DNA of 64,000 nt from assembly GCA_002842855.1 (NCBI GenBank), contig PHEE01000007.1, positions 1,139 to 65,138 of the forward strand. The letters run 5' to 3'. The position numbers were made by a program, and so were the translations under genes. Below, piece by piece: positions 15,381 to 49,739 of this stretch; the first letter of the stretch is position 1; the number at the start of each line of letters is the position of its first letter. The stretch comes from Alphaproteobacteria bacterium HGW-Alphaproteobacteria-4. GTDB taxonomy: Bacteria; Pseudomonadota; Alphaproteobacteria; Rhodobacterales; Rhodobacteraceae. Under the pieces are notes generated by a model. That model did not search any database and was not told the DNA's origin. It worked only from the letters and a program-made list of their open reading frames with translations.

Positions 15381-16411
15381 GCCAGCGCGTCACCCGGTCT
15401 TCGCGCCTGTCGCAAGGGGCCGCCGTTCTTGGGCTGCTGGTGCTGATCTTGCTGGCCGCCGCACCCTGGTGGGCGGGGCGCGCCGACATGCGGCTGATGG
15501 GCGAGATCTTCCTCTATCTGTCACTGGCGACACTGTGGAACCTGCTGGCGGGTTATGCGGGCCTCGTGTCAGTGGGGCAGCAGGCCTATGTCGGGCTGGG
15601 CGGTTATGCGCTTTTCGCCCTGACAATATTGGCGGGGGTGCCGGCGCTTTGGGCAATTCCGCTGGCGGGGCTGCTCGGGGCGCTGGTGGCGGTGCCGGTG
15701 GCGGCGCTGATATTCCGGCTTCGCGGTGCCTATTTCGCCATCGGCACCTGGGTGATTGCCGAGGTGTTTCGCCTCGGCGCAGCACAGGTTTCGGCACTCG
15801 GCGGCGGCTCGGGCACCAGTCTGCCCGCCGATGTGGTGCGTGCCATGGCATCGGGGCGCGATGCGCGCGAGGCGCTGGCCTATTGGCTGGCGCTTGGGGT
15901 GGCGATGGCGGTGATCGGCCTTGCGTTCGCCATCCTGCGGTCGCGCCTCGGGCTTGCTCTCATGGCGCTGCGCGATAACGAGCTGGCGGCGCGCAGCCTT
16001 GGCATCAACATCTGGCGCACCAAGTTCATCGTCTATGTCGCCACCGCCGGGCTGACCACGCTGATCGGTGCGCTGATCTTTGTGCAAAAGCTGCGCATCT
16101 CGCCTGACGCCGGGTTTTCGGTGAATGACTGGACCGCGTTCGTCATCTTCATTGTGGTGATAGGCGGCATCGGCACGCTGGAAGGGCCGATCATCGGCAC
16201 GTTGGTGTTTTTCGCGCTGCGCGAAACGATGGCCGATATGGGCAGCGTCTACCTTATCGCGCTCGGGGTGGTGGCAATCGTGGTCATGCTGCGCGCGCCA
16301 GCGGGCATCTGGGGCCTGATCCGGGCGCGCACCGGGGCCGAGCTTTTCCCAATAAGCCACCGGGTTCGGGGCACAACAACCAAGGAGACCGCTGATGGCA
16401 AGAAAGCCTAA
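15377..16411 (+). CDS. Branched-chain amino-acid ABC transporter permease (LivM-like)
   Basis: 344-aa polytopic membrane protein; the start overlaps the upstream stop. Confidence 0.85.
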   Translation: MSQRVTRSSRLSQGAAVLGLLVLILLAAAPWWAGRADMRLMGEIFLYLSLATLWNLLAGYAGLVSVGQQAYVGLGGYALFALTILAGVPALWAIPLAGLLGALVAVPVAALIFRLRGAYFAIGTWVIAEVFRLGAAQVSALGGGSGTSLPADVVRAMASGRDAREALAYWLALGVAMAVIGLAFAILRSRLGLALMALRDNELAARSLGINIWRTKFIVYVATAGLTTLIGALIFVQKLRISPDAGFSVNDWTAFVIFIVVIGGIGTLEGPIIGTLVFFALRETMADMGSVYLIALGVVAIVVMLRAPAGIWGLIRARTGAELFPISHRVRGTTTKETADGKKA

Positions 16412-17248
16412 GACGATCATCACCTGCGCCATCACCGGCGCGATCCATACACCAACGATGTCGGATGCGCTGCCTTATACGCCCGACGACATCGCAGCGC
16501 AGGCGATTGCGGCGGCCGAGGCGGGGGCGGCGATCTTGCACCTGCACGCGCGCCGCCCGGCCGATGGCGGGGTCTCGATCAACCCCGATGATTTCGCGGC
16601 TTTTCTGCCGCGTGTGAAACAGGCGACGGGGGCGGTGGTCAACATCTCGACCGGTGGCAGCCTGAAGAACACCATCGAGGAGCGGATCGCCCCGGCGCTG
16701 CGCTTTTCGCCCGAGATGTGCAGCCTCAACATGGGCTCGATCAATTTTTCCTTCCACCCGCTGGCCAAGCGCTATGACACCTGGAAGTTCGACTGGGAAA
16801 AGGACTATGTCGAAAACTCGGACACCTACATTTTCCGCAACACCTTCCGCGATATCGGCACCGTGGCCGCGGCACTCGGCCCGCATGACATCAAGTTCGA
16901 GCATGAATGCTACGATGTCGGGCACCTCTACAACCTGCGTTTCTGCATGGATATCGGGCTGTTCAAGGCGCCCATCTTCATTCAGTTCGTGTTCGGCATT
17001 CTGGGCGGCATCGGCCCCGAGGTCGACAACCTCGTGTTCATGAAGCGCACCGCCGACCGGTTGTTTGGCGATGATTACCGCTGGTCGGTGCTGGGTGCGG
17101 GTGGCGCGCAGATGGGTTGGCGCCCAACAATGCCGCGCAAGTCGCCAAGATCCGCCGGATCATCGAAGACCTGGGCTGTGAGGTGGCCAGCCCCGATGAA
17201 GCCCGCGAAATTCTAGGGCTGAAGGGGGCAGACAGGGTTTCGTTCTAA
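16395..17248 (+). pseudogene. 3-keto-5-aminohexanoate cleavage enzyme family (BKACE/DUF849) gene with internal deletion and frameshift
   Basis: The N-terminal 240 aa are BKACE-like (TCAITGA, ILHLHAR His-x-His). After ...GAGGAQMG (about 17115) the frame yields junk. The conserved C-terminus LAPNNAAQVAKIRRIIEDLGCEVASPDEAREILGLKGADRVSF-stop continues in another frame (17117..17248). The (V/I)RVGLED segment expected between the two parts is absent. Confidence 0.8.
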
Positions 17249-17370
17249 GGTCGGCCCTCGCGGCGAGCCTACTCGCGTAGCCCGCGCGTTGGGGCGATAG
17301 CGCTGCCCGTCCATTGTGGCCAAATCGGATGAAGTGTGGCATGCTCCGAACAGATTTCCCGGGGCCCAGC

Positions 17371-18069
17371 ATGAAACCCGAATTTATTGAAACGGCGCGT
17401 CGTTCCATTCTGCTTTCCACGGTCCCCGAGCCTGTGCTCGGGCATGTGCTGGGGGCGGCGCAGCAGCGCGAGTATGACCGCGGCGAAACGATTTTCTTGC
17501 AGGGTGAAAGAGCCGAAGCCATCTACATTGTCGCCTCCGGCTGGGTAAAACTGTTCCGTGTCTCGCCGAATGGTGCCGAGGCGGTGGTGAGCATTTTCTC
17601 CAAGGGTCACAGTTTTGGCGAGGCGGTGGCATTCCAGCGCGGGTATTACCCGGTTGCCGCGCAGGCAGTCACGAAATGCTCGCTGATCCGGATCAACGCC
17701 GATATCTTCTTGCGGCTGATCCATGAAAGCCCCGAAATCGCCATTTCGATGTTGTCGGCGGCGTATCGACATTTGCAGCAGCACGTCATCCAGATCGAGG
17801 CGCTGAAAGCGCAGACCGGCGCGCAGCGGGTGGCGGAGTTTCTGCTGGAACTGGCGCCCTGCGCAGCCGGCGCCTGCGAAGTGACTTTTCCCTACGACAA
17901 GGCGCTGATTGCCGGCAGTCTCGGGATGAAGCCGGAAAGCCTGAGCCGGGCATTTGCCAAGCTGCGCGATCAGGGCGTAAAGGTCCGGCAAAATCAGGCC
18001 GCAATCGCCGATATCTCGGCGCTGCGCGATTTTGCCGCCGAAGACCCCGCCACTGCGTGGAGCCGCTGA
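17371..18069 (+). CDS. nnrR: Crp/Fnr-family regulator, NNR/NnrR type (NO-responsive denitrification activator)
   Basis: cNMP-binding-like domain plus C-terminal HTH (SLGMKPESLSRAFAKLRDQGV). No N-terminal Cys cluster, so not FnrL-type. Adjacent to nirS/nor. The start could also be ATG 17341. Confidence 0.8.
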   Translation: MKPEFIETARRSILLSTVPEPVLGHVLGAAQQREYDRGETIFLQGERAEAIYIVASGWVKLFRVSPNGAEAVVSIFSKGHSFGEAVAFQRGYYPVAAQAVTKCSLIRINADIFLRLIHESPEIAISMLSAAYRHLQQHVIQIEALKAQTGAQRVAEFLLELAPCAAGACEVTFPYDKALIAGSLGMKPESLSRAFAKLRDQGVKVRQNQAAIADISALRDFAAEDPATAWSR

Positions 18070-18114
18070 GGCTGCACCCGCACCCATCTGAATGGAGTGT
18101 CAAAAACGCCGCCG

Positions 18115-18384
18115 CTACGCCTCGGCACTGTCGATCAGGTGCCGCACCCATCGCGCGGCGGCCCAGGTTGCGGGCAGTCCGAGCGGGAGCGAAGCCCAAA
18201 GCGCGGTATAGGGCGAGAGCGCCCCGAACCCCACCGCTTGCCACAGCAGCCCGAGCATGAACAGGTTGATCGCCACCGCTGCCGCAGCGAAGGGATAAAG
18301 CAGCAGGCCCAGTTTCCAGACTGGCCAGCGCCCGTCTTGCGCACCGCCCGGTTCTTTCTGTGTGCCATTTTTGGGCTGGGTCAT
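18115..18384 (-). CDS. Small hypothetical membrane protein (89 aa, two predicted TM helices)
   Basis: ATG-initiated ORF downstream of nirS. Hydrophobic stretches LGLLLYPFAAAAVAINLFMLGLLW and ALWASLPLGLPATWAAA. I recognise no family. Confidence 0.45.
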   Translation of the reverse strand: MTQPKNGTQKEPGGAQDGRWPVWKLGLLLYPFAAAAVAINLFMLGLLWQAVGFGALSPYTALWASLPLGLPATWAAARWVRHLIDSAEA

Positions 18385-18439
18385 CGCAATCTCATGGGGC
18401 AGGCGAGGGGCAAATCAGCCGGGCGGTTGCCGAAAGAAC

Positions 18440-18463
18440 GGGGGGGCCGCGAACGGCCCCCCC
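18440..18463 (-). terminator. Intrinsic terminator of nirS
   Basis: GGGGGGGCCG-CGAA-CGGCCCCCCC hairpin 18 nt after the nirS stop, followed on the minus strand by GUUCUUUCG. Confidence 0.7.
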
Positions 18464-18480
18464 AGCACCATTGCACGCGA

Positions 18481-20370
<1,890 letters not shown>

Positions 20371-20379
20371 TCAATGCGT

Positions 20380-20393
20380 TTGACTTTTGTTAA
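20380..20393. promoter_or_regulatory. NNR/FNR-type box TTGAC-TTTT-GTTAA upstream of norC
   Basis: Centre is 73.5 bp upstream of the norC ATG. It overlaps a further inverted repeat GTCAA-N5-TTGAC (20370-20384). Confidence 0.65.
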
Positions 20394-20459
20394 GGCGGCC
20401 CCGGCGCCCCACGTTCACAACGCGGTTACTGTTAACCGCTCCGGGAAGGGACCAGCGCC

Positions 20460-20912
20460 ATGCGCGACGTCATGACCAAGAGCATGGCCCGGAACGTGTT
20501 CTATGGCGGGTCATTGTTCTTCATTCTGATCTTCATCGCTTTGGCGGTGCAGAGCCACCGCTATATTCTTTCCACCTCGACCAACGCCGCAACGCTGACA
20601 TCCAGCGTTGTTGCGGGCAAGCGCCTTTGGGAAGAAAAAGCCTGCGTCAACTGCCATACGATTCTGGGCGAGGGCGCCTATTTTGCCCCCGAACTGGGCA
20701 ACGTGATGACCCGCTGGGGCGTTGCCGGCGACCCTGCCGCCGCAGCCGATACGCTCAAGGGCTGGATGGATGCCATGCCCACCGGCATCGCGGGCCGCAG
20801 GCAGATGCCGCAATTCAACCTGACCGATGCTGAATACCGTGAACTGGCGGACTTCCTGCTGTGGACCAACACGATCCGCACGCAGAGCTGGCCACCGAAC
20901 GACGCGGGCTGA
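20460..20912 (+). CDS. norC: Nitric oxide reductase subunit C (membrane-anchored cytochrome c)
   Basis: 150 aa, MRDVMTKSMARNVFYGGSLFFILIF..., heme motif CVNCH. Near-colinear with Paracoccus NorC. Confidence 0.95.
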   Translation: MRDVMTKSMARNVFYGGSLFFILIFIALAVQSHRYILSTSTNAATLTSSVVAGKRLWEEKACVNCHTILGEGAYFAPELGNVMTRWGVAGDPAAAADTLKGWMDAMPTGIAGRRQMPQFNLTDAEYRELADFLLWTNTIRTQSWPPNDAG

Positions 20913-23041
<2,129 letters not shown>

Positions 23042-23046
23042 AGCCG

Positions 23047-24814
23047 ATGCCCGGCACACTCGATCTGGAGCCGTGGGAGCCAGAAGAAACCGTAGGCAAG
23101 CTCTGGCACGCCTATGCAAGCCGCCTTGATGCGCCGCGCCTCCACCCCGAAGCTCAGGTCGATCTGGCCGAGATCGGCGGGCGGCTCGCGGTGCTGTTTC
23201 GCGGCCTTGGTGGCAGCCCCGAGGTCGAAATCAAGCCTGCCGCTGATGCACCAAGCGGGCACCGGCTGTCGCTGCGGCGCAGGTTGGGCGCTGCGGTCGA
23301 GCGCCTGCCGAGCGCAAGCTTTGATGGCGCAGCCCTGCGGCTGCCCGAAAGCCTTGCGGTGTTTCCCATGCGCGAGGCGAATGCGGCGCTTTATCTGTGG
23401 CTTGCCGCTGCTGCGGCACATGCGGGACCGCGCCGCGACGAGGCAGACCCGCTTTGTGCCTGATGCCGAGCGCACCGTTGAAGCGGTGATCCGGCATCTG
23501 CTGGGCGACCCTGCGCCGCTTCCGGCCAAGGCGCAGCGCATGCGCGCGGCAGTTGCTTCGGGTGATTTCGCGCCCTATCGGGCGCCACGCGGCTACCGCC
23601 CGTTCCGGCCGCCCGCACTTTGGCCGACGCTCGGCGCGCTGGCGTTTTCGGCGCAGACGGCGGTCGAAACCCGCGCCACCGAAGGCACCCCCGAGCAGGG
23701 CGAGGGCAGCACCAAGACGCGCCGCGCCCGGCGCCGCAAGGCCGATCAGGCCGAACGCAACGACAGCTTCATTCTGCACAAGTTCGAGGCGATCCTGAGC
23801 TGGGCAGAATTCATCAACCTTAACCGCAGGGTCGAGGATGACGAAAACGATGATGCCCGCAAGGCGGCGGATGACGTTGATGAAATCGGCCTCGGGCAGA
23901 TTTCCAAGGCGCCCGCCACGCGGCTGAAACTGCACCTCGATCTTGCCCCCGAAGATGTTGACCGCGAAGCGCTTTCGGGGGTGCAGCTTTACCCCGAATG
24001 GGACGTGCGCACCGGTGCCTATCTGGCCAATCATGTGCGCGTGCTCAGCTCTGACATCGAGCCCGCCACCGAGCCACCGCCCTATCTGCACGATCCGCGT
24101 GCACAAGCCCGCATCCGTGCGGTGCGGCGCCAGTTCGAGGCGCTGCGCCCGGCGCGGATGCCCACCAGCGGCCACCCCGACGGCGACGATCTTGATACTG
24201 ACCGGGCGGTGCGCGCGCAGGTCGATCTTATCGCGACCGGGCAGGGCGATGACCGCGTCTGGCGCCAAACCCGGCAGCAAAAGCGCGATCTGGCGGTGTC
24301 GATCTTGCTTGACGTGTCGCGCTCGACCGAATCGGCGGTTCCCGGGCACGGCCACGGCTGGCGCGCGGTTATTGACATCGAGCGCGAGGCGCTGGCGGCG
24401 CTTTCGTGGGGGCTCGCAGCCTGCGGCGACGATTTTGCCATCCATGCCTTTTCCTCGCTCAAGCGCGACCGGGTCTATATGCAATGCGCCAAGCGGTTCG
24501 GCGTGCCGATGTCGGCGGCGGTCGAGGCCCGCATTGCGGCGCTGCGCCCCGGCTTTTATACCCGCCTTGGCGCCGCCATTCGCCATGCCTCGGCCGGGCT
24601 GGCCGAACAGGCCCGCCGCCGCCGCCTGCTGCTGGTCATCACCGATGGCAAACCCAATGATCTGGACCACTACGAAGGCCGCCACGGCATTGAAGACAGC
24701 CACAAGGCGGTGCTTGAAGCGCGCCGCGCCGGGCATGCGGTGTTCGGCATCACCGTGGACCGCGACGGCAAGACCTGGTTTCCGCGCATTTTCGGGCAGA
24801 ACACCACCCGCTAA
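23047..24814 (+). pseudogene. norD: NorD (vWA-domain NOR maturation protein), split by a frameshift or deletion near 23452-23456 and possibly shortened at the C-terminus
   Basis: The N-part MPGTLDLEPWEPEETVGKLWH... (ORF 23038..23463) stops after ...RRDEADPLCA. Homology continues in the frame of ORF 23114..24814 from ...FVPDAERTVEAVIRHLLGDP through the vWA domain (ILLDVSRSTES MIDAS) and ends abruptly at ...FPRIFGQNTTR. Confidence 0.75.
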
Positions 24815-25038
24815 TCCGGGCGGCACATCACCCCCCCTCAATCCACTGAACTGCCGCACCTCGCGCTCTTGCCTGTCGGCATTCGCGCCCGAGCCGCATT
24901 CAGTGGGCAGCGGAAGTTCCTGAGTCCGGAAACTCCCGCCAAAGGGGGTGTCTTGCGACACAAGGTGTCCCACGGGGGGTTTTGAGATGGGGTGTGCTTT
25001 TTCTAAACCGCTGCAAAATAACGAAAACATTTGGTGGA

Positions 25039-25114
25039 TGGTAGGCCCGGAGGGACTCGAACCCCCAACCAAGGCGTTATGAGCGCCCTGCTCTGACCAT
25101 TGAGCTACAGGCCC
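25039..25114 (-). tRNA. tRNA with CAU anticodon (Met; a lysidine-modified Ile2 cannot be excluded from sequence alone)
   Basis: Reverse complement GGGCCTGTAGCTCAATGGTCAGAGCAGGGCGCTCATAACGCCTTGGTTGGGGGTTCGAGTCCCTCCGGGCCTACCA. It folds as a 76-nt cloverleaf with a 7-bp acceptor stem, GTTCGAGTC T-loop and encoded CCA. Confidence 0.9.
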
Positions 25115-25304
25115 GCCGGGGCCGCCAGCGCGGCGCGGGTAGGGGTTGGATAGCAGACCCGCCGGGTGCGTCAAGCAAAAGGCCCGCCGCGCTGCTTGTC
25201 GGCCGTGGTCCAAAGCGAAATCCCCATGCTTTCACGCCACGGCCCGTTGTTTGGGCGCGCGCAATCAGGTATCGGGGGCGCGAGCGACGCTGGGCCGGGA
25301 GGCG

Positions 25305-26348
25305 ATGATGACGAAACGCGGTTTGACCTATGCCGATGCGGGGGTTGATATCGACGCGGGCAACGCGCTGGTCGAGCGGATCAAGCCCGCCGCAAGGCGC
25401 ACGCAGCGCAGCGGCTCGATGGGCGGGCTTGGCGGGTTCGGCGCGCTTTTTGATCTCAAGGCAGCAGGCTACACCGACCCTATTCTGGTGGCGGCAACCG
25501 ATGGTGTCGGCACCAAGCTCCGGATCGCGATCGATACCGGCCACGTCGGCACGATCGGCATCGACCTTGTCGCCATGTGCGTCAACGACCTTGTCTGCCA
25601 AGGCGCCGAGCCCTTGTTCTTTCTTGACTATTTTGCCACCGGCAAGCTGGAGCTCGGGCAGGCGACAGCGATTATCGAAGGCATTGCCGCAGGCTGCGCC
25701 GAAAGCGGCTGCGCGCTGGTGGGCGGCGAGACGGCAGAGATGCCGGGCATGTATCACGGCGCTGATTTCGACCTTGCGGGCTTTGCCGTGGGCGCGATGG
25801 AGCGGGGCGGCGCGCTGCCCAATGGCGTGGCCGCGGGCGACATCGTGCTTGGCCTTGCCGCCTCGGGGGTGCATTCCAACGGCTACAGCTTCGTGCGCAA
25901 GGTGGTGGAGCATACCGGCCTTGGCTGGGGCGCGCCCGCGCCTTTCGGGCCGGGCACGCTTGGCGAGGCGCTGCTGGCACCGACCCGGCTTTATGTGCGC
26001 CCGGCGCTGGCCGCCATCCGCGCGGGCGGTGTACACGGCCTTGCGCACATTACCGGCGGCGGGCTGACCGAAAACCCGCCGCGGGTGCTGCCCGAAGGTC
26101 TGGGAATTGAGATTGACCTGGGCGCTTGGGCGCTGCCGCCGGTGTTCCGCTGGCTGGCCGAAACTTCGGGCATGAGCGAGCCCGAATTGCTGAAAACCTT
26201 CAACTGCGGCATCGGCATGATCGCCGTGGTGGCGCCAGAGCGGGCCGCCGCCCTTCGCGCGGTGCTGGAAGCCGAGGGCGAAACGGTGGTGGCGCTTGGC
26301 CGCGTTGTGCCGGGGCAGGGGGTCGCCTATCGGGGCCACCTTTTGTGA
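25305..26348 (+). CDS. purM: Phosphoribosylformylglycinamidine cyclo-ligase
   Basis: The ...[14 protein letters not shown]... N-terminus and DGVGTK motif. Start is ATG 25305 or 25308 after GGGAGG. Confidence 0.95.
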
Positions 26349-26932
26349 AACGGGTCGCGATTCTGATTTCGGGCGGCGGCTCGAACATGCTGCGTCTGGT
26401 CGAAAGCATGCAGGGCGACCACCCGGCGCGGCCAGTGCTGGTGGTTTCCAATGATCCCGCTGCGGCAGGCCTTGCGCGCGCCGCCGAACGGGGCATTGCC
26501 ACCGCGTCGGTGGACCACCGCGCCTTCAAAGGCGACCGCGCGGCCTTTGAGGCAGAACTGCTGCGCCCGATCCTTGATGCGCGCCCCGATATCCTTTGCC
26601 TCGCAGGCTTCATGCGGGTGCTGACGCCCGCCTTCGTGGAACGGTTTCGCGGCAGGATGCTCAACATCCACCCCTCGCTCTTGCCCAAATACCCGGGCCT
26701 GCACACCCACGCCCGCGCGCTTGCGGCGGGCGATGCCGAGGCGGGCTGCACCGTGCATGAGGTGACACCCGAACTTGATGCAGGCCCAATTCTGGGTCAG
26801 GCGCGGGTGCCGGTGCTGCCAGGCGACACCGAGGAAACGCTGGCTGCGCGTGTGTTGGCTGCCGAACACCGGCTTTACCCTGCCGTGCTCAGCCGCTTTG
26901 CGGCGGGCGAGCGTGGGCTTCTGACGCTCTGA
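26345..26932 (+). CDS. purN: Phosphoribosylglycinamide formyltransferase
   Basis: GTG 26345 overlaps the purM stop (GTGA). [12 protein letters not shown] and NIHPSLLP motifs. Confidence 0.93.
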
Positions 26933-26980
26933 AACCTTCCCCCTCGCGCGGCTTTGGCTGCGACGGATGGCTTTCGCCGA

Positions 26981-27012
26981 GGGGTGTTTTGGCAATGAAG
27001 ACGGCGCGGAGG
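26981..27012 (+). repeat. Copy A of a dispersed ~30-nt intergenic motif (GGGGTGTTTTGGCAATGAAGACGGCGCGGAGG)
   Basis: Shares the core GGGT(A/G)TTT(T/G)(G/C)GCAATGAAGA-N-G(C/G)CG with the copies at 31207 and 37315. All three are intergenic and in the same orientation. Confidence 0.6.
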
Positions 27013-27082
27013 GTTTTCTTTCCCGCTGCGCGCGCCTAAAGGGGGGCGTCCGCGGGATGACCCCGCACCTCGAAAGCGAAAA

Positions 27083-37289: not shown

Positions 37290-37314
37290 GCCTGCGCGGG
37301 TCGCGGCGCTTGGC

Positions 37315-37346: not shown

Positions 37347-37353
37347 GCGGCCC

Positions 37354-38133: not shown

Positions 38134-38155
38134 CGGGGCACTCCTTTGCCCCTTT

Positions 38156-38872: not shown

Positions 38873-39008
38873 GTCGTGGCACCCACCTGGGCGCCCGCCG
38901 GGGCAGCCGCGCCGCGTTTCGCACTGCTTGACAAAACCTTAAGGGAAACGCTGATATGGCTCATAAACAATGGCTTGGCCTTCATAACGCGCGCGTTACG
39001 GGCACGTT

Positions 39009-39332
39009 TCAGACCGAAAACGAGGTGCCGCAGCCGCATGAAGCGGTCGCGTTCGGGTTATCGATCACGAAGCGGGCGCCGATCAGTTCTTCGCTGTAGT
39101 CGATGCTGGCCCCTGCCAGGAAGGGCAGCGAAACCGGGTCGATCAGCACCTGCTGGCCGTCGCTTTCCAGCACCAGATCGTCGGCTGCGGCGGCGCCGAA
39201 ATCGATCTCATACTGAAACCCCGAGCAACCGCCCCCCGCCACCGCCACGCGCAGCGGCCGCGCCGCGCGGCCGGAATTGATCGCGGCAAGGCGGGCGAAG
39301 GCGCGGGGGGTGACTTTGGGCGGCAGGATCAT
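39009..39332 (-). CDS. HesB/IscA/ErpA-family iron-sulfur cluster insertion protein
   Basis: 107 aa; GGGCSGFQY and the C-terminal CGCGTSF motifs. Confidence 0.9.
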   Translation of the reverse strand: MILPPKVTPRAFARLAAINSGRAARPLRVAVAGGGCSGFQYEIDFGAAAADDLVLESDGQQVLIDPVSLPFLAGASIDYSEELIGARFVIDNPNATASCGCGTSFSV

Positions 39333-39403
39333 CGGGGCTTTCCAAGCTGGGGTGCCTGCCCGATATAGGAGGGAACAGAAGCCGGAACAAGCCGGGGGGG
39401 ACG

Positions 39404-40573
39404 ATGCTGCAACCTTACGCCTGCGATCCGGCAGCCAGCCGGGGGCGGCTGCACGCCGAAAGCATCTCGACCTTCCGCTCGCCCTTTCAGCGCGACCGCG
39501 ACCGCATCATCCATTCCTCGGCCTTCCGGCGGCTGAAACACAAGACCCAGGTCTTTGTCGAGCACGAGGGCGATTATTACCGCACCCGCCTGACCCACAC
39601 CATCGAAGTGGCCCAAGTGGCGCGCACCATCGCCGGGGTGCTCGGCCTCAACACCGACCTTGCCGAGGCGGTGGCGCTGGCGCATGACCTCGGCCACCCC
39701 CCGTTCGGCCATACCGGCGAAGATGCCCTATCTCTGCTGATGGCCCCCTTCGGCGGCTTCGACCACAACGCGCAGGCCATTCGCATCGTCACCCGGCTTG
39801 AACGCCACTACGCGGGTTTCGACGGGCTGAACCTGACCTGGGAAACGCTTGAAGGCATCGCCAAGCACAACGGCCCGGTGATCGGCGGAACCGGCGCCCA
39901 TGCGGTGCCAGACCGCGCGCATCTGCCCTACGCGCTGGCCGCGTTCGATGCGGAATGGGATCTGGAACTGGCCACCAACGCCTCTGCCGAGGCGCAGGTG
40001 GCGGCGGTGGCCGATGATGTTGCCTACAACCACCACGACCTGCATGATGGCCTGCGAGCGGGGCTTTTTACCGAAGCCGACCTGATGGGACTGCCGCTGG
40101 TGGGCCCGGCCTTTGCCGAGGTGGACCGGCTCTATCCGGGGCTCGATGCCACGCGGCGGCGGCATGAGGCGCTGCGCCGGGTGTTTGGGGTGATGGTCGA
40201 AGATGTGATCGCGGTGGCGCAGAACCGCCTCGCCGCCCTTGGCCCCCGCTCGGTCGAAGATATTCGCGCGATGGAGGGGCCGATCATCCGGTTTTCCAAG
40301 CCGCTCTATCAAAACCTGAAGGCGATCAAGGGGTTCCTGTTCACCCGCATGTATCGCGCGCCCACGGTGGTGGCCGAACGGCAGCGCGTGACCGGCATGA
40401 TCAACGCGCTTTTTCCGCTTTACCTCGCCCACCCCGAATTGCTGCCCGAAGACTGGCAGGGCGACGTGGCGCAGGCGGGCGACGAAACCGCGCTGGCCCG
40501 CGTGGTGCTCGATTACGTGGCCGGGATGACCGACCGGTTCGCGATACAGGAGTTTGGCAGGTTGGTGGGGTAG
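39404..40573 (+). CDS. dgt: Deoxyguanosinetriphosphate triphosphohydrolase-like protein (HD domain)
   Basis: FQRDRDRIIHS and HDLGHPPFGH motifs; 389 aa. Confidence 0.9.
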   Translation: MLQPYACDPAASRGRLHAESISTFRSPFQRDRDRIIHSSAFRRLKHKTQVFVEHEGDYYRTRLTHTIEVAQVARTIAGVLGLNTDLAEAVALAHDLGHPPFGHTGEDALSLLMAPFGGFDHNAQAIRIVTRLERHYAGFDGLNLTWETLEGIAKHNGPVIGGTGAHAVPDRAHLPYALAAFDAEWDLELATNASAEAQVAAVADDVAYNHHDLHDGLRAGLFTEADLMGLPLVGPAFAEVDRLYPGLDATRRRHEALRRVFGVMVEDVIAVAQNRLAALGPRSVEDIRAMEGPIIRFSKPLYQNLKAIKGFLFTRMYRAPTVVAERQRVTGMINALFPLYLAHPELLPEDWQGDVAQAGDETALARVVLDYVAGMTDRFAIQEFGRLVG

Positions 40574-40610
40574 GGGGGCGGGTATCCGATTGACGCTCGC
40601 GCGGGCCAGA

Positions 40611-40677
40611 GGGCAGCGCCCGAACCGAGGGGTGGGCGTAAAGCGCCCACCCCTTGGGGGCGGGTCGGGCGCTGCCC
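40611..40677. terminator. Nested double hairpin between convergent dgt and prfC (bidirectional terminator candidate)
   Basis: Outer arms GGGCAGCGCCCGA / TCGGGCGCTGCCC enclose the inner GGGGTGGGCG-TAAAG-CGCCCACCCC. Confidence 0.55.
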
Positions 40678-40726
40678 GGTCCGCTGAAGCGCCCCGGGCG
40701 AAAGAAAGCAGAACGCTCGCTTCCCC

Positions 40727-42322
40727 CTAAACCATCATCTCTTTCGTCGCGGTCAGCTTCAACTCCGGAAAATCGCGCCCGATGCGGTCGATGTCCCACT
40801 GAAGCCGCGTCAGGAACACCAGATCGCCGTCGCTATCCTGCGCGATGTGGCCCTTGTTGATGTTCACAAAGCGCTCGACCTCGGGTTTTGGCCCGGTGAC
40901 CCAACGCGCCGAGGTGAAATGGCTTGGCTCAAACCGCACCGGCAGGCCGTATTCCTGCTCGATCCGGCTGGCCAGCACCTCGAATTGCAGCGCCCCCACG
41001 ACGCCGACGATGAACCCCGACCCCAGCATCGGCTTGAACACCTTGGCCGCACCTTCTTCGGCAAACTGCGTCAGCGCCTTGTCGAGGTGCTTGGCCTTCA
41101 TCGGGTCCATCGCGCGCACGCCTTGCAGCAATTCGGGCGCGAACGAGGGGATGCCGGTAAAGCGCAAGGCCTCGCCCTCGGTCAGCGCGTCACCGATGCG
41201 CAGTTGCCCATGGTTCGGGATGCCGATGATGTCGCCCGCCCAGGCCTCTTCGGCCAGTTCGCGGTCGGCGGCCAGAAACAGCACCGGGTTCGAAACCGCC
41301 ATCGGCTTTTTGGTGCGTACATGCAGCAATTTCATGCCGCGCGTGAAATGCCCCGAGGCGAGGCGCACGAAGGCCACGCGGTCGCGGTGCTTGGGGTCCA
41401 TGTTGGCCTGCACCTTGAACACAAAACCCGCAACGGTGGTTTCCTCGGGCGCCACGGCGCGGCTGGCAGCCTTTTGCGGCTGCGGCTCGGGGCCGAATTC
41501 GGCGATGCCCTGCATCAACTCGCGCACCCCGAACGAGTTGATCGCCGACCCGAACCAGATTGGCGTCATGTGGCCTTCCAGAAAGCTCTGGCGGTTAAAG
41601 GTGGGCAGCAGGTCGCGCGCCACCTCCAACTCATCGCGCAGTTGCGCCAGCAGATCGGCGGGCACCAGCGCCTCCAGCCTGGGGTCGGATAGCCCGTCGA
41701 TCTTGATCGATTCCGCCACCCGGTTGCGGTCGGCGCGGTCCATCAGTTCCAGCCGGTCGTGCACGATGTCATAGCAGCCGATAAAATCGCGCCCCATGCC
41801 GATCGGCCACGAGGCCGGGGCAACGTCAATTGCAAGGTTTTGCTGGATTTCGTCAATGATGTCGAAGGTATCGCGGCTTTCGCGGTCCATCTTGTTGCAA
41901 AATGTCAAGATTGGCAGATCGCGCAAACGACAGACCTCGAACAGTTTGCGGGTTTGGCTTTCTACCCCCTTGGCGCCGTCGATCACCATGATCGCGGCAT
42001 CAACGGCGGTCAGGGTGCGGTAGGTGTCTTCGGAAAAATCAGAGTGGCCGGGGGTATCGACCAGGTTGAAGCGGTATCGGCCAAAATCGAAGCTCATCGC
42101 CGAGGCGGAAACCGAAATGCCGCGCTCCTGCTCCATTTTCATGAAGTCGGACCGGGTGCGCCGTGCCTCGCCCTTGGCGCGCACCTGCCCGGCCATCTGG
42201 ATCGCGCCGCCAAACAGCAGGAACTTTTCGGTCAGCGTGGTCTTGCCCGCGTCGGGGTGCGAAATGATCGCGAATGTCCGGCGGCGCGAGATTTCGGGCG
42301 GGAGGGGGGCGGGCGTGTTCAT
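40727..42322 (-). CDS. prfC: Peptide chain release factor 3
   Basis: ORF trimmed to ATG 42322. G-domain AIISHPDAGKTT, DTPGH, NKMD; 531 aa. Confidence 0.95.
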   Translation of the reverse strand: MNTPAPLPPEISRRRTFAIISHPDAGKTTLTEKFLLFGGAIQMAGQVRAKGEARRTRSDFMKMEQERGISVSASAMSFDFGRYRFNLVDTPGHSDFSEDTYRTLTAVDAAIMVIDGAKGVESQTRKLFEVCRLRDLPILTFCNKMDRESRDTFDIIDEIQQNLAIDVAPASWPIGMGRDFIGCYDIVHDRLELMDRADRNRVAESIKIDGLSDPRLEALVPADLLAQLRDELEVARDLLPTFNRQSFLEGHMTPIWFGSAINSFGVRELMQGIAEFGPEPQPQKAASRAVAPEETTVAGFVFKVQANMDPKHRDRVAFVRLASGHFTRGMKLLHVRTKKPMAVSNPVLFLAADRELAEEAWAGDIIGIPNHGQLRIGDALTEGEALRFTGIPSFAPELLQGVRAMDPMKAKHLDKALTQFAEEGAAKVFKPMLGSGFIVGVVGALQFEVLASRIEQEYGLPVRFEPSHFTSARWVTGPKPEVERFVNINKGHIAQDSDGDLVFLTRLQWDIDRIGRDFPELKLTATKEMMV

Positions 42323-42375
42323 GGCGCGCGGTGTAGCGGTTGGCGCGAGGTCGCGCAAGCGCGGGGGCGGGTAGG

Positions 42376-43359
42376 TCAGCCTGCGCGGCCAAGCGCGCGC
42401 AGGGCATTCAGGGTGATCCATTTGCTCGGCGCGCCAAGTTGCTCGATCGGCGCGGTGAACTTGTCGTTATAGGAATTTTCCAGCCGCCAGCGGCCATCGG
42501 CGCCGCGTTTTTCGGCCACCACCGCCAGAGCCGCATCCATGCGCGGGTCGCGGTAGCCCAGATCCAGCAGCAGGTTGAGGATCTCGAGCACGTCGGTCTG
42601 ATACATCAGCGGAAAGCCGAAGCGCAGCCAGCCCGGCTTGGATTTGCGCGCAAGATCGTGGCTGCGCTTGTGGATGTGGTGGATCAGCATGAACTCCGCC
42701 GCCCGCGCCAGAGTTTCCGCCACCGCTGCGGTGCGCGCCTGCGGCGGAATTTCGGCCAGCGCCTTCATCGCCTTGACCACCCCCATGTGGCAGCTGTGCC
42801 GCCCCCAGCAAGGTTCCAGCCGGTCATAGGGCCAGCCCTGCGGCGCCACCGCGATGCCATCGTCAAAGCGCTGATAGGTGGTGATCCAGTCCACCGCCGC
42901 CTGCACCCGCGGCTCGGCGGCAAGCCCGAAGCGCAGCAGCACCCATGCCATGTTGCCGGTCAGGCAGGGCAGCACCACGCTCGCCTGGCCGCCGTTGCGA
43001 CCGCCCTTTTCGGAAAAGCCGCCGCTTTCGCGGTGCTGTGCCTGCGTGAGAATGAAGGCACAGGCCGCCCGGATGCGCGCATCGGCGGGGTCGGCCCCCA
43101 GTTCCGCCAGTATCAGAAGCTGCCAGACGGTGCTGCGATACTTGCCGGTGTAGAACTGCCCGGGTTTGAGCCAGTAGCCATCCGGGTGCTGCTGGTCCAT
43201 GATCGCGCGAACCGCCGGGCTTGCCATGATGGCGCGCCGCGCCGTTTGCAGCGCGGGGTCGGCTTCGTCCCGCCCCAGCAGGCGTTTCAGCGTGAAATAC
43301 CGCACCGAAGGGTTCTCGTCCTCCAGAAGCCAATCCAGAACAGCGGGCGCGGGCAACAT
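42376..43359 (-). CDS. Hypothetical alpha/alpha-toroid protein (prenyltransferase/squalene-oxidase-repeat-like)
   Basis: 327 aa with repeated aromatic/Gly-rich helical hairpin signatures (QHPDGYW, ESGGF, DGRW). The family assignment is tentative. Confidence 0.55.
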   Translation of the reverse strand: MLPAPAVLDWLLEDENPSVRYFTLKRLLGRDEADPALQTARRAIMASPAVRAIMDQQHPDGYWLKPGQFYTGKYRSTVWQLLILAELGADPADARIRAACAFILTQAQHRESGGFSEKGGRNGGQASVVLPCLTGNMAWVLLRFGLAAEPRVQAAVDWITTYQRFDDGIAVAPQGWPYDRLEPCWGRHSCHMGVVKAMKALAEIPPQARTAAVAETLARAAEFMLIHHIHKRSHDLARKSKPGWLRFGFPLMYQTDVLEILNLLLDLGYRDPRMDAALAVVAEKRGADGRWRLENSYNDKFTAPIEQLGAPSKWITLNALRALGRAG

Positions 43360-43459
43360 TCGATCGGGCCTTTCGCAAACGCGACCGCCACTCTACGCCG
43401 CTTCGGCCTGCCACAAAAGCGCTTGCAGAAAGCGGCCCGCAGGGCTGCCCCGGCCCGCG

Positions 43460-44470
43460 CTAGTCCTTGCCGCGCTTTTTGAAAAGGGCCGCGCGGGCGG
43501 CCGCGTCCAACTCTGCCCGCCCCGCTTCGGTACCGAAATGCGGGCGGTGGGCAAGGCCGGGGAACTGGGCGCGCAGGCTTTGGGCCAGCGCCTCGGGCAT
43601 CATCTGCATGGTCGCTTCGCTGACTTGCAGGCTCTCGCAAGGAATGCCCTCGGCGTAGATGATCTCGTGGCGGTCGAAAACGAGGCTGTAGTAATCGACA
43701 TAGCCGCCCTCGCGCCGCCAAACGCTTTCGCCATCGACAAGGTGCTTGGCTTGCACCAGCAACTCGGCGGTGTCGCCCAGCCGCCGTGCGCCGCGCTGGT
43801 AGAGAAACACCCGGTGATGCGGGCTAACCACCAGATCGCCCTCGTTGCCAAGCGTGCCTGCCGAAATTACCACCGGGGCAAAGCTGCCGAGCGCGCGCAG
43901 GTTGGCCCGGCCGATAAAGCGTAGCGGCTGCGGCCCGGAATCGCGGGTGAGCACGCGGTCGCCCGGCTGCAACGCCTCGATCGCGTGCTGCGCGCCACCC
44001 GCAAGCGTGATCATCGTGCCGGTGCAGAAGGCAACACAAATCAGGTCGGCCAGCCGCGCGGTGCCGGGGTCTTCGTGCGATTCGAGCAGCGTATATTCCG
44101 TGCGCGGCGCAATGGGCGACAGCGGCAGCGCATAGTGCCGCCCGCTGACCACATGCGCGATCAGCAGAATGTCCACGGTGTCGCCATCGGGTGCCATCAG
44201 CACATGCCGCGCGACAAGCTCTACCGCATCGCCCGGCGCACCGATTTGCGAGCCCGAGGCGACACTTTGCCCGGCATCGCCCGCGACATTGGCCAAGAGC
44301 AGCCGCAGCGCTGCCGCAGCACGGTCGAGCTGATAGATGTCCCCCGGCTGGCACGCTGCGGGCAGATCGAGCGGGTCGCCATGGTTGGCGCCACTGGTGA
44401 CGCGGATCGCCTCGGCCGCAAACACATGTGCGGCCTGTCCGGGAAGGTGGGCGATACTGGGGGCGGTCAC
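43460..44470 (-). CDS. Hint (Hedgehog/intein, bacterial intein-like) domain-containing protein
   Basis: GTG 44470, 7 nt after GAGG (the ORF track starts at TTG 44521). C-terminal half CTGTMITLAGG...LQPGDRVLTRDSGPQPLRFIG...VSPHHRVF...IIYAEGIPCESL is a typical Rhodobacterales Hint/BIL module. Confidence 0.75.
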   Translation of the reverse strand: MTAPSIAHLPGQAAHVFAAEAIRVTSGANHGDPLDLPAACQPGDIYQLDRAAAALRLLLANVAGDAGQSVASGSQIGAPGDAVELVARHVLMAPDGDTVDILLIAHVVSGRHYALPLSPIAPRTEYTLLESHEDPGTARLADLICVAFCTGTMITLAGGAQHAIEALQPGDRVLTRDSGPQPLRFIGRANLRALGSFAPVVISAGTLGNEGDLVVSPHHRVFLYQRGARRLGDTAELLVQAKHLVDGESVWRREGGYVDYYSLVFDRHEIIYAEGIPCESLQVSEATMQMMPEALAQSLRAQFPGLAHRPHFGTEAGRAELDAAARAALFKKRGKD

Positions 44471-44584
44471 GGTGGAACCTCGGTCTGCTGCTGGCGTCGA
44501 AGACTGGCATCGTTTATGCAAAATCGGGTAAAGCGGTTTGCCCGCGCAGCGTCAAGCGCGGGGTCGGCAAATGGGGGAAGGCAT

Positions 44585-45364
44585 ATGGATCTGGGCATCC
44601 GGGGCAAGCGCGGGTTGGTCTGCGCATCCTCAAAAGGGCTTGGGCGCGGCTCGGCCGAAGCGCTGGCGGCGGCTGGGGTTGATCTTGTGCTCAACGCGCG
44701 GGGTGCCGCGGCACTGGCCGCCACCGCTACCGACATTTCAGCCCGCTACGGCGTGCGCGTGCAGACCGTGGCGGGTGACATCACCGATGCTGGTGCGCGC
44801 GCCGAGGTGCTGGCCGCGGCGGGTGCGGTCGATATTCTCGTCACCAACGCCGGTGGCCCGCCGCCCGGAAACTGGGCCGACTGGAGCCGTGACGATTTCC
44901 TGCGGGCAATCGATGCCAACATGCTGACCCCGGTGGCGCTGATGCAGGCCTGCCTGCCCGGCATGATCGCACGCGGCTGGGGCAGGGTGGTCAACATCAC
45001 CTCGGCGGCGGTGAAATCGCCGATCGCCGAACTTGGCCTGTCAAACTCGGCCCGCGCGGGGCTTACCGGATTTGTCGCGGGCACTGCGCGGCAGGTGGCG
45101 CGGCACGGGGTTGCGATCAACAATCTGCTGCCCGGCCTGCATGCCACCGACCGCGCCACGGCGCTTGATGCAGGCGTCGCCGCGAAAACTGGCATCAGCC
45201 CAACCGAGGCCGCCGCCCGCCGGGCCGCTGGCATTCCCGCCGGGCGCTACGGCACCCCGGCCGAGTTTGGCGCCGCCTGCGCGTTCCTGTGTTCGGCGCA
45301 TGCGGGGTTTATCATCGGGCAGAACATTCTGCTCGATGGGGGTGCTGCGAATGCAACATTCTGA
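44585..45364 (+). CDS. SDR-family oxidoreductase
   Basis: ATG 44585 behind GGGGGAAGG; the long ORF-track N-extension is rejected. The cofactor-binding motif here is CASSKGLGRG, and the segment ...LVTNAGGPP... is also present; 259 aa. Confidence 0.85.
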   Translation: MDLGIRGKRGLVCASSKGLGRGSAEALAAAGVDLVLNARGAAALAATATDISARYGVRVQTVAGDITDAGARAEVLAAAGAVDILVTNAGGPPPGNWADWSRDDFLRAIDANMLTPVALMQACLPGMIARGWGRVVNITSAAVKSPIAELGLSNSARAGLTGFVAGTARQVARHGVAINNLLPGLHATDRATALDAGVAAKTGISPTEAAARRAAGIPAGRYGTPAEFGAACAFLCSAHAGFIIGQNILLDGGAANATF

Positions 45365-45470
45365 GGCGCCAGTGCTTCAACCCAAAAATCCCCTCCCAAG
45401 GCGCCCCGCGCTTGCACGGCCGAAACCGGGCTGCTATCGGATATGCCTGAGCGATTTGATCGGATAGCGC

Positions 45471-46568
45471 GTGACACCCCCCCCACCATCGCCGCGCCTT
45501 GATGTGCAGGGTCTGCGCCGCAGCTTTGGCGGACGCGAGGTGGTGCGCGATGTCTCGTTTGCGGTAGACGCGGGGCAGGTAAGCTGCCTGCTTGGCCCGT
45601 CGGGCTGCGGCAAATCCACCACCTTGCGCCTTGTGGCCGGGGTCGATGTGCAAGACGCGGGCACGATCCTGGTCGATGGCGCCGCGGTTGCGGGGCCGGG
45701 GCTGCATCTGCCGCCCGAGCGGCGCGGCGTCGGCCTGATGTTTCAGGACTTTGCGCTGTTTCCGCACCTTACCGTGGCTGAAAACGTCGCCTTTGGCCTG
45801 ACCGGCCCGCGCCCCGGGCGCATGCGCAGGGTGGGCGCGCTGCTGGAACGCGTGCACATGCAGCACCACGCACAAAGCTACCCGCATGCGCTTTCGGGCG
45901 GCGAGCAACAAAGGGTGGCACTGGCGCGCGCGCTGGCGCCAAGTCCGCGCATTCTGTTGATGGACGAACCCTTTTCCGGCCTCGACGAACGCCTGCGTGA
46001 TGCGATCCGCGACGAAACGCTGGCGCTGTTGAAAGACGAGGGCACCGCTGTGCTGCTGGTCACGCACGAGCCGCACGAGGCGATGCGGATGGCCGACCAG
46101 ATATTGCTTATGCGCGGTGGCAAGATCGTGCAGCGCGGCGCCCCCTACAATGTCTACAACGCCCCGATTGATCGCGCCGCTGCCGCATTCTTTTCCGATC
46201 TCAACATTCTGCGCGGCACCGTGCAGGGGGCCCTGACCGAAACCGCTTTTGGCAGCTTTCTGGCCCCCGGCCATGCTGACGGCACCGAGGTTGAAATCGT
46301 GATCCGCCCGCAGCACCTCAAGATCGATTTCGACCGGGCAGGGCGCGGCCCCGCGCCCACTGCCGCCGAAGGCACCGCCGCGCGCGGCCATGTGGCGCGG
46401 GCGCGGTTTCTTGGGCGCGAGTCGCTGGTCGAGTTCACCATGGAGTTTGACGGCTCGGTGCTGGTAGCCAGCGTTCCCGGCGTGTTTCTGCCCACCCCCG
46501 GCACGCCGATGTGGCTGATGATCCGCCGCGACCGCTGCTTTGTGTTTTCCGCCCGAAGTGCTGGCTGA
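45471..46568 (+). CDS. ABC transporter ATP-binding protein (Fe3+/polyamine importer type with C-terminal TOBE-like domain), no cognate permease nearby
   Basis: GTG start; Walker A GPSGCGKS, LSGGEQQRVALARAL, LLMDEPFS; 365 aa. Confidence 0.85.
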   Translation: MTPPPPSPRLDVQGLRRSFGGREVVRDVSFAVDAGQVSCLLGPSGCGKSTTLRLVAGVDVQDAGTILVDGAAVAGPGLHLPPERRGVGLMFQDFALFPHLTVAENVAFGLTGPRPGRMRRVGALLERVHMQHHAQSYPHALSGGEQQRVALARALAPSPRILLMDEPFSGLDERLRDAIRDETLALLKDEGTAVLLVTHEPHEAMRMADQILLMRGGKIVQRGAPYNVYNAPIDRAAAAFFSDLNILRGTVQGALTETAFGSFLAPGHADGTEVEIVIRPQHLKIDFDRAGRGPAPTAAEGTAARGHVARARFLGRESLVEFTMEFDGSVLVASVPGVFLPTPGTPMWLMIRRDRCFVFSARSAG

Positions 46569-46667
46569 GCGGCGAGGCGCGGTGCAGTTTGGCCCGCCGA
46601 CAGTCGAGACATGAACAATCTGAGAACACGTCTTGGCGGCGGCGGTGACTGGCGCTATGGTCGCGCC

Positions 46668-49151
46668 ATGAGCGAGACCCCTTCCAGCCTGCCGTTGTCC
46701 GCCCGCGCCATGGCGGCGCGCCCCGCGCCCTATCTTGACGGGCTGAACCCGGCGCAGCGCGCGGCCGTAGAGGCATTGGATGGCCCGGTGTTGATGCTGG
46801 CAGGCGCCGGCACCGGCAAGACCCGCGCGCTGACCGCGCGGATCGCGCATCTGCTGGCGCAGGGGCGGGCGCGTCCGAACGAGGTGCTGGCGGTCACCTT
46901 CACCAACAAGGCGGCGCGCGAGATGAAAGAGCGGCTGGGCCGCCTGATGGGCGAAAGCGTTGAGGGGCTGCCGTGGCTCGGCACCTTTCATGCGATCTGC
47001 GTAAAGCTGTTGCGCCGCCACGCCGAATTGGTAGGGCTGAAATCGAACTTCACCATTCTGGATACCGATGACCAGATCCGGCTGCTCAAGCAACTGATTG
47101 TCGCTGAAAACATTGATGAAAAGCGCTGGCCCGCGCGGATGCTGGCGGGGCTGATCGACGGCTGGAAGAACCGCGCCCTGACGCCCGACAAGGTGAAGGG
47201 CGCCGAGGCCGCGACGTTCAACAACTACGGCGGCGAGCTTTACACCGCCTATCAGGCGCGGCTTCGGGCGCTCAATGCGGTCGATTTCGGCGATTTGCTG
47301 CTGCACATGGTCACGATCTTTCAGACCCACCCCGATGTGCTGGCGCAGTATCAGCGCTGGTTTCGCTACATTCTGGTGGACGAGTATCAAGATACCAACG
47401 TGGCGCAGTATCTGTGGCTGCGCCTGCTGGCGCAGGGCCACCGCAACATTTGCTGCGTCGGCGATGATGACCAGTCGATCTACGGTTGGCGCGGCGCAGA
47501 GGTGGGCAACATCCTGCGTTTCGAGGCGGATTTCCCCGGCGCGCAGGTGATCCGGCTGGAGCAGAACTACCGCTCGACCGCGCATATTCTTGCCGCCGCC
47601 TCGGGCCTTATCGCGGCCAACGCAGGGCGGCTGGGCAAGACCCTCTGGACCGCCGCCGAGGGTGGCGCGAAGGTTCGCCTCATTGGCCATTGGGACGGCG
47701 AAGAAGAGGCGCGCTGGATCGGCGACGAGGTTGAGGCGGTGGCGCGGGGGGCGCGCGGGATTGACCCGATCGGCCTGAACGGGCAGGCGATTCTGGTGCG
47801 CGCCAGTCACCAGATGCGCGCCTTCGAGGACCGTTTCCTGACCATCGGCCTGCCTTACCGGGTGATCGGTGGCCCGCGCTTTTACGAGCGGCAGGAGATT
47901 CGCGACGCGATGGCCTATTTCCGCCTCGCGGTCAGCCCCGATGACGATCTGGCATTCGAGCGGGTGGTGAACGTGCCCAAGCGCGGCCTTGGCGACAAGG
48001 CGGTGCAGACGATTCAGGCGACCGCGCGCGAAGATGGCACCGGGCTTTTGGAGGCCGCCCGCTATGCGGTGGCCACGGGGCGGCTTTCAGGCCGAGGTGC
48101 CGGGCAGTTGCGCGGCTTTGTCGAAGGGGTGGACCGCTGGCACAAGGCGGTGCAGGCCGGCGAAAGCCATGTCGCACTGGCTGAAACCATTCTTGACGAA
48201 AGCGGCTACACCGGAATGTGGCAGGCCGACAAATCGCCCGAGGCGCCGGGGCGGCTGGAAAACCTGAAAGAGCTGGTGAAGGCGCTTGAACAGTTCGAGA
48301 ACCTGCAAGGCTTTCTGGAACATGTCTCGCTGATCATGGACAACGCCAGCGAAGACGCCGCCGAAAAGGTCAGCATCATGACCCTGCACGCGGCCAAGGG
48401 GCTCGAATTTCCCGCCGTGTTCCTGCCGGGGTGGGAGGATGGCCTTTTCCCCAGCCAGCGCAGCATGGACGAAGGCGGGCTGAAAGCGCTGGAGGAGGAG
48501 CGGCGGCTGGCCTACGTCGGCATCACCCGCGCCGAGTGGCTTTGCACCATTTCGTTTGCCGGCAACCGCAGGGTTTACGGCCAGTGGCAATCGGCGCTGC
48601 CCTCGCGCTTCATCGACGAGCTGCCGGCCGCGCATGTCGAGGTGCTGACCCCACCCGGCTTGTACGGTGGCGGCTTCGGAGCCGCGGCGCGGCCGACGGC
48701 TTTCGGCATCGAAGAGCGCGCTGCGCGCGCCGATGTCTATGCCTCGCCCGGCTGGAAGCGGATGCAGGAACGCGCCGGGTCGCGCCCGCTCGCGAAGCCG
48801 CGCGAGGCGCGCCATGTGGTGATCGACCTTGACGCAGTCAGCAATTTCGAGCCGGGCGAGCGGGTTTTCCATCAGAAATTCGGCTATGGCCTGGTGCGGC
48901 TGATCGAGGGTGACAAGCTGACGGTGGTGTTTGAAAAGGCGGGCGAAAAGAATGCGCGGCAGCGCCGCGAACAGTCGGGTCAACCGCGCGGCTTCAGCCG
49001 CGGTTCCCCACGGCGCATTCACGATGAACAGGCCCGAGCCGACCATGCCATGCCCTGCGCGGGCGGGGGGAAAGCGAACCTCGTGGCGCAGGGCTTCGGG
49101 GTGGTTGGCGGCAAGCGCTGCGAGCATCGGCGCGTGCGGCGCGGCAGCTAG
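46668..49151 (+). CDS. uvrD: DNA helicase II (UvrD/PcrA family); the native C-terminal tail appears replaced after residue ...FEKAGEKN (about 48953)
   Basis: Walker A AGAGTGKT, DEYQDTN and helicase motifs are colinear to ...FHQKFGYGLVRLIEGDKLTVVFEKAGEKN. The remaining 64 codons (to 49151) are antisense to rlmJ and Arg-rich junk. Confidence 0.85.
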   Translation: MSETPSSLPLSARAMAARPAPYLDGLNPAQRAAVEALDGPVLMLAGAGTGKTRALTARIAHLLAQGRARPNEVLAVTFTNKAAREMKERLGRLMGESVEGLPWLGTFHAICVKLLRRHAELVGLKSNFTILDTDDQIRLLKQLIVAENIDEKRWPARMLAGLIDGWKNRALTPDKVKGAEAATFNNYGGELYTAYQARLRALNAVDFGDLLLHMVTIFQTHPDVLAQYQRWFRYILVDEYQDTNVAQYLWLRLLAQGHRNICCVGDDDQSIYGWRGAEVGNILRFEADFPGAQVIRLEQNYRSTAHILAAASGLIAANAGRLGKTLWTAAEGGAKVRLIGHWDGEEEARWIGDEVEAVARGARGIDPIGLNGQAILVRASHQMRAFEDRFLTIGLPYRVIGGPRFYERQEIRDAMAYFRLAVSPDDDLAFERVVNVPKRGLGDKAVQTIQATAREDGTGLLEAARYAVATGRLSGRGAGQLRGFVEGVDRWHKAVQAGESHVALAETILDESGYTGMWQADKSPEAPGRLENLKELVKALEQFENLQGFLEHVSLIMDNASEDAAEKVSIMTLHAAKGLEFPAVFLPGWEDGLFPSQRSMDEGGLKALEEERRLAYVGITRAEWLCTISFAGNRRVYGQWQSALPSRFIDELPAAHVEVLTPPGLYGGGFGAAARPTAFGIEERAARADVYASPGWKRMQERAGSRPLAKPREARHVVIDLDAVSNFEPGERVFHQKFGYGLVRLIEGDKLTVVFEKAGEKNARQRREQSGQPRGFSRGSPRRIHDEQARADHAMPCAGGGKANLVAQGFGVVGGKRCEHRRVRRGS

Positions 49152-49739
49152 GATCGGATACCAGAGCGCGATCACCCCGACATTCCATTTGCGCGCCACC
49201 TTCGCGATGAACGACGGCAGCGATTCGTAATCCGCCTTTACCTCGTAGCTCGGGTCGATCAGCAACAGGCCCCGGCGCGGCGTGGGCGGGGTGATGGAAA
49301 GCGCCATCTGCAAGCCGTCGATCTGCTGAAAGATGCCGCCGTGTGGCGCCATCGTTGTTTGCAGCGCCGCGAATTCGCGCGGGTGCAGTTCGGCCAGCCG
49401 GATCGAATCGACCGGGCGCAGCAGCGCGGCCGCGATCAGCGGCGAGCCGGGGTAGGTGGCTGTGCCATGCGCCCTGCGGGTGGCAGCAAGGGCGCGGGCG
49501 TAGGGGTGGGTGGGCGCGAACCAGCCTAGCCGCTCGATCCGGGCGATGCCCTCGGCGGCCTCGCCGGTTTTCAGCGCCTCGGGGGCATCGAGCGCATAAA
49601 GCCCGCGCCCCGCGTGCGTTTCGATGTAGCTGAGCGGCTTTGGCTTGGCGGTGAGGTAGTCGAGCATGCTTGCCAGCAGCGCGTGCTTGTGCACGTCGGC
49701 CAGATTTCCCGCGTGATAGAGGTGTTGATAACTGAGCAT
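48957..49739 (-). pseudogene. rlmJ: 23S rRNA (adenine2030-N6)-methyltransferase RlmJ lacking its native 3' end and stop codon
   Basis: ATG 49739. MLSYQHLYHAGNLADVHKH hallmark, LLLIDPSYE, ...GSGLFIVNAPWG...LTRLFAALP. Beyond about 48957 the frame runs on without a stop to 48087, antisense to uvrD. Confidence 0.7.

Follow-up and report, generated by a model that had tools for sequence, protein, structure and literature searches.

Short coding-sequence losses in a Rhodobacter-like draft genome are very probably artefacts of scaffolding or local assembly

Local and scaffolding errors have been described in assemblies made with IDBA-UD, metaSPAdes and CLC, and where they are left uncorrected they carry incorrect protein-coding sequences into the databases (Chen et al, 2020, Genome Res 30:315, PMC7111523; cited here from portions of the article). 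In those portions the errors of short-read metagenome-assembled genomes (MAGs) resemble what is described below, in that the lesions occur in one assembly while independent ones are intact, the sequences are scaffolded, N gaps have the wrong size and coding sequences are broken. The errors set out there consist of unsupported consensus, Ns written despite an overlap and wrong repeat numbers, whereas in the present genome the gap appears to have been closed to zero length, 64-149 nt are lost and an edge lies on a strain-variant base. The combination of a zero-length gap with a variant-base edge was not found in the portions of Chen et al (2020) considered. The other closely related systems are the genuine small-deletion pseudogenes of decaying or host-restricted genomes, in which conserved genes likewise lose tens of codons with a change of frame. 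In contrast to these, the genes described here show no substitutions, stops, 1-nt indels or repeats at the ends, the junctions are absent from sister assemblies and the edges fall on strain SNPs.

The genome in question (G000) is a 3.15-Mb draft in 59 contigs with a G+C content of 65% and an estimated completeness of 92.9%, as against 97-99% in four genomes of the same genus. Homologues of NorB place it among the Rhodobacter-like alphaproteobacteria; the search with the NorB fragment gave no match above 89% identity. The window, that is the whole 64,000-nt stretch analysed, is G000:C58:1139-65138. Two contigs encoding the exact NorQ protein of the window were found, the JGI contig Ga0246100_100205 and an ENA MEGAHIT contig. 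The first was taken as the intact reference and rebuilt over positions 1-69,276 from four overlapping retrievals. Megablast of the rebuilt sequence against contig C58 gave five blocks, each of 100% identity. Positions 1-68,602 of C58, within which the whole window lies, equal positions 150-69,276 of the reference with no real mismatch, save for five missing segments, all located by megablast against the JGI contig:

Segment 1: Ga0246100_100205 18405-18483 (79 nt), in the BKACE gene, missing at window 17117/17118
Segment 2: Ga0246100_100205 22427-22490 (64 nt), in norB, missing at window 21060/21061
Segment 3: Ga0246100_100205 24887-25014 (128 nt), in norD, missing at window 23456/23457
Segment 4: Ga0246100_100205 26358-26462 (105 nt), in the norD tail, missing at window 24799/24800
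Segment 5: Ga0246100_100205 50616-50764 (149 nt), at the ends of uvrD and rlmJ, missing at window 48952/48953

For segment 3 the boundary may alternatively be drawn at 23460/23461, which brings in one SNP and a microhomology of 4 nt; the lone mismatch reported by the alignment, at window 23457, vanishes when the third boundary is shifted four bases leftward. The first-pass annotation had placed junctions at about 17115, 21060, 23454 and 48955, and the JGI alignment confirms all of them, at 17117, 21060, 23456/23460 and 48952. The junction in the norD tail, which it had given as possible near 24803, is real, lies at 24799/24800 and lacks 105 nt. Its list was complete, since the identical JGI reference reveals no junction in the window besides these five, and it was also right that the neighbouring genes are undamaged, the remainder of the 68.6 kb matching the intact reference at every base. 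Comparison with the congener G004, which has ~83 additional bases in the mraY-murD intergenic region (window ~60007-60066), had suggested a sixth junction near ~60033; this was rejected as a natural intergenic indel on the basis of the same JGI reference.

The genes affected stand in the window as follows:

16395..17216, + strand: BKACE (beta-keto acid cleavage enzyme), a 273-aa frameshifted ORF with its junction at 17117/17118
20926..22226, + strand: norB, split into a 45-codon 5' piece in frame 1 up to 21060 and a 3' piece in frame 3
23047..24814, + strand: norD, with two junctions (23456/23457 or 23460/23461; 24799/24800)
46611..49151, + strand: uvrD, an 846-aa ORF that is native to 48952 and then runs through the antisense of rlmJ
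48953..49738, - strand: rlmJ (Pfam RsmJ family), lacking the stop codon and the two closing bases of the codon before it

In the BKACE gene, codons ~242-268 are gone and the frame is shifted; the match of the ORF to Pfam PF05853 is limited to profile positions 1-213 of 274, and two congeners have ~78 additional bases near 17120. The loss in norB takes codons 46-67 and shifts the frame, as seen by tblastn with the NorB of a genome of the same family (G013): the match to residues 1-45 lies in frame +1 and stops at 21060, where frame +3 takes over with residues 67-448. The corresponding search for norD passes from frame +1 to frame +2 with the split near 23460. The first loss in this gene comprises codons ~137-180 and causes a frameshift, while the second removes the final 26 codons together with the stop and a further 24 nt beyond it. 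At the fifth junction UvrD loses its final 17 codons together with the stop, and the 89-nt spacer between the convergent uvrD and rlmJ is missing; all four congeners have 91-122 additional bases at this point (48952/48953).

The lost segments are ordinary coding sequence, segment 5 also taking in the spacer with its GC-rich hairpin, and in four of the five the length is not divisible by three. Their G+C content of 0.56-0.72 is like that of the flanks, which rules out coverage dropout caused by extreme composition. The ends are blunt and free of repeats. Microhomology at the junctions amounts to 1, 1, 0, 0 and 0 nt for segments 1-5, which is the chance level, and slippage or k-mer collapse at repeats is ruled out by this lack. 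Models with a bubble of fixed k-mer size (k = 55 or 64) account for the loss of 64 nt but not for the other lengths.

Around 20 independent public contigs from the same population encode BKACE, NorB, NorD, UvrD and RlmJ at full length. They derive from four JGI metagenomes, ENA ERZ27239239-246, the NCBI assemblies GCA_017973855.1 and GCA_017973775.1, and one Logan contig. In both the JGI reference and the ENA MEGAHIT contig BKACE has 310 aa, NorB 454 aa and NorD 653 aa. Eight more contigs found through NorC (JGI 3300038336, 3300038334 and 3300029821; ENA ERZ27239239-243; GCA_017973775.1) have a NorB of 454 aa or one cut by the contig end, and wherever NorD and BKACE are covered they measure 653 and 310 aa. 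Counted by gene, the intact BKACE is present in contigs L041, L042, L055, L057 and L059, NorB in eight other contigs (full-length unless a contig end cuts it) and NorD in L041, L042 and L055-L060. The intact UvrD of 798 aa is found in L048, L049 and L066-L071, and eleven contigs have the intact RlmJ of 263 aa. Among these contigs, nine that were retrieved through the DUF1127 gene each encode the 263-aa RlmJ, and also the 798-aa UvrD given enough length. Contig JAEMOG010000014.1 of GCA_017973855.1 (351 kb), which is 100% identical to the JGI reference across 21.2 kb, likewise has undamaged uvrD and rlmJ, with proteins of 798 and 263 aa. None of the five junctions was found in the independent assemblies, and a 40-mer across the norB junction was not found among the JGI metagenome contigs searched. 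By exact look-up, NorC and NorQ of the window are present in a collection of 15 billion proteins, in which the fused and broken ORFs of the window were not found. A literature search by accession number found no paper on these samples. Judged by these assemblies, the organism itself would have BKACE, nirS-norCBQD, uvrD and rlmJ all intact.

It could be proposed that the deletions are real and recent, that they arose in a subpopulation or strain captured by this assembly, and that the genes are true pseudogenes in that lineage. The sequence does contain the lesions and the samples are heterogeneous in strains; against this, the 68.6 kb are otherwise without any difference from assemblies in which the genes are intact, no independent assembly has the junctions, and the ends are blunt and lack repeats. 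We consider this explanation very unlikely. The first-pass annotation had doubted true decay, a doubt that is borne out by the lack of any other difference from the intact reference, and the recent burst of small deletions that it had offered as the biological alternative finds no support, there being no base change over the 68.6 kb and no junction in an independent assembly.

The position of the junctions relative to strain variation is informative. In an alignment of the strain variants that occur together in the samples, at 98-99.7% identity, the base at one edge of each of segments 1-4 proved to be polymorphic among the strains (18483 T/C, 22426 G/T, 24887 C/T and 26358 T/G), while the opposite edge was not at a variant. 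For segment 5 neither edge lies on a variant base among the strains compared. With segments of the same lengths placed at random within 3 kb of the true sites, at least four edge matches occurred at a frequency of 5e-5 in 200,000 placements. Sites that vary between strains are the points at which assembly graphs fork. There is no cause for a mutation or a random edit to begin at them, and these edges are thus unexpected if the deletions are real. One edge on a variant and the other not would fit a contig that ends at a branch point and is followed by a contig with an arbitrary start.

The same observation bears on a second possibility, that the segments were removed by coordinate after assembly, either by a curation script that stripped gap characters or unsupported consensus or by deliberate editing of the sequence. 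The blunt ends, the chance-level microhomology and the narrow size band of 64-149 nt are what such cutting would give. The exact broken ORFs are also missing from the public protein collection and C58 was never among the contigs retrieved; however, its absence is uninformative, as the look-ups may omit records of the genome's own. Random cuts would hardly fall on the polymorphic sites as often as observed (5e-5, as given above), and three N runs persist in the genome, so there has been no wholesale stripping of gap characters. A script that deletes unsupported consensus beside variants would still be an artefact of the assembly stage and is hardly a rival. Overall, processing or editing of this kind seems unlikely, and the deliberate edits envisaged by the first-pass annotation are disfavoured for the same reason, that random cuts would not hit polymorphic sites. 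A further reading accommodates the edges by assuming that a minority lineage of a bioreactor-like community truly carries the junctions and that they were made by a blunt-end process that repeatedly removes 60-150 nt at sites of mismatch between strains, for which abortive heteroduplex repair after recombination between strains might serve as an example. If true, this would mean a lineage without nitric oxide reductase and UvrD, but we regard it as very unlikely.

Two observations concern variation near the fifth junction. The stretch of the reference at 50,000-51,000 (window ~48.2-49.2 kb), which holds the 3' ends of uvrD and rlmJ with the spacer between them, is a hot spot of strain variation with 25-31 differences in two sister contigs, as against 2-13 per neighbouring kb. 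The protein of the adjacent DUF1127 (YjiS-like) gene at window 49801-50410 is 100% conserved over at least 22 contigs from several strains.

The gaps that were written as Ns point to how bases may have been lost. The genome has only three N runs, of 77 (C16), 31 (C34) and 56 (C58) bases. Each of the four congeners has 187 nt where the 56-N run stands at C58:92251; in relatives the 31-N run corresponds to ~225 nt and the 77-N run to ~130-230 nt. By these comparisons the scaffold gap sizes of this genome are underestimated by ~50-200 nt. With gaps undersized by this amount, true gaps of less than ~150 nt would come out at zero or below and be written without Ns, which matches the range of 64-149 nt. 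The like shortening of this assembly's N gaps is a further point against real deletions. Adjoining the 31-N gap, at C34 ~6880-6915 (L077 2081-2116), is a dispersed element of ~36 nt with dozens of copies of 90-100% identity in the congeners G003 and G004, which looks like a REP-type intergenic repeat.

Comparable lesions are found on other contigs. A scan of 776 kb of the congener G004 (724 kb aligned) against the whole genome gave 16 clean losses of 59-503 nt in G000 and four in G004, this evidence from beyond the window resting on a congener that is 85-90% identical. Losses within conserved genes that change the frame, accepted by tblastn when matches were present on both flanks, numbered four in G000 against none in G004:

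C42:19981: frame-breaking loss in an AcrB-family transporter gene, protein flanks 97% and 95% identical
C46:67210: frame-breaking loss in an ABC ATPase gene, both flanks matched by tblastn
C46:76676: frame-breaking loss in a conserved gene, both flanks matched by tblastn
C43:10037: frame-breaking loss in a cyclase gene, both flanks matched by tblastn

For the C42 junction no identical reference was present among the JGI metagenome contigs scanned. As a rough estimate from the excess of clean losses over G004, there may be ~50 hidden joins across the genome. That conserved genes on other contigs are broken in the same manner again speaks against real deletions. The five junctions had been described as a cluster, and this is true in that they are dense, with four within 7.7 kb around the nir-nor genes, above the genome-wide average; it does not hold as a peculiarity of the window, as like lesions lie on other contigs of the genome. 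The lesions are thus genome-wide, with a locally raised density here. Strain diversity finds no support as the cause of this local density, variants being present also in stretches that are free of junctions.

Taken on the sequence evidence, the five losses are very probably an artefact of scaffolding or local assembly and would represent no biological feature. The sample would contain several strains 0.3-2% apart, and the assembly graph would branch at every variant base. Where the path of the dominant strain was broken locally, the dead-end stub would be clipped back to the branch point, leaving a contig that ends on a variant base, and the next contig would begin at an arbitrary position less than ~150 nt onward. 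The scaffolder, underestimating gaps by ~50-200 nt, would arrive at a gap of zero or less and abut the contigs, with 64-149 nt lost and no Ns written, while longer gaps would become N runs that are too short. This sequence of branching, clipping and abutting is the likely one. Contig joins made without gap characters had been among the explanations offered at first, and this is the one upheld by the identical flanks, the blunt ends, the edges at variant sites, the undersized N gaps and the lesions on other contigs.

In a genome collection that is in wide use, this assembly is the representative of its species, and false pseudogenes and truncated proteins are to be expected in the annotation of its record. 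It would be a mistake to take the region for a crippled denitrification island, since nirS, norCBQD, BKACE, uvrD and rlmJ are all intact in the population. More generally, where a MAG has clean losses of tens of codons in otherwise undamaged genes, it should be compared with sister assemblies or reads before a biological reading is made. Even without recourse to the reads, an edge that coincides exactly with a strain-variant base is helpful in recognising an artefact.

The block at window 17250-24900 comprises an nnrR-like Crp regulator, nirS and norCBQD. It is missing in G001 and G002 of the same genus, in which similarity ends just past BKACE, and in G004 the similarity is limited to 231 nt, 91% identical to the 3' end of norD and located on a different contig. 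It has the appearance of an island specific to the strain or species, and it is intact in the population. Downstream of norD, three sister assemblies (L055 15006-20453, L057 9217-14742 and L058 6811-12258) have a phage-like block in place of purM, in which an AAA_25 ATPase, a large terminase, an HNH protein, a capsid protein and an S78 protease are encoded. The replacement of purM by this block indicates a mobile element at that spot in some strains.
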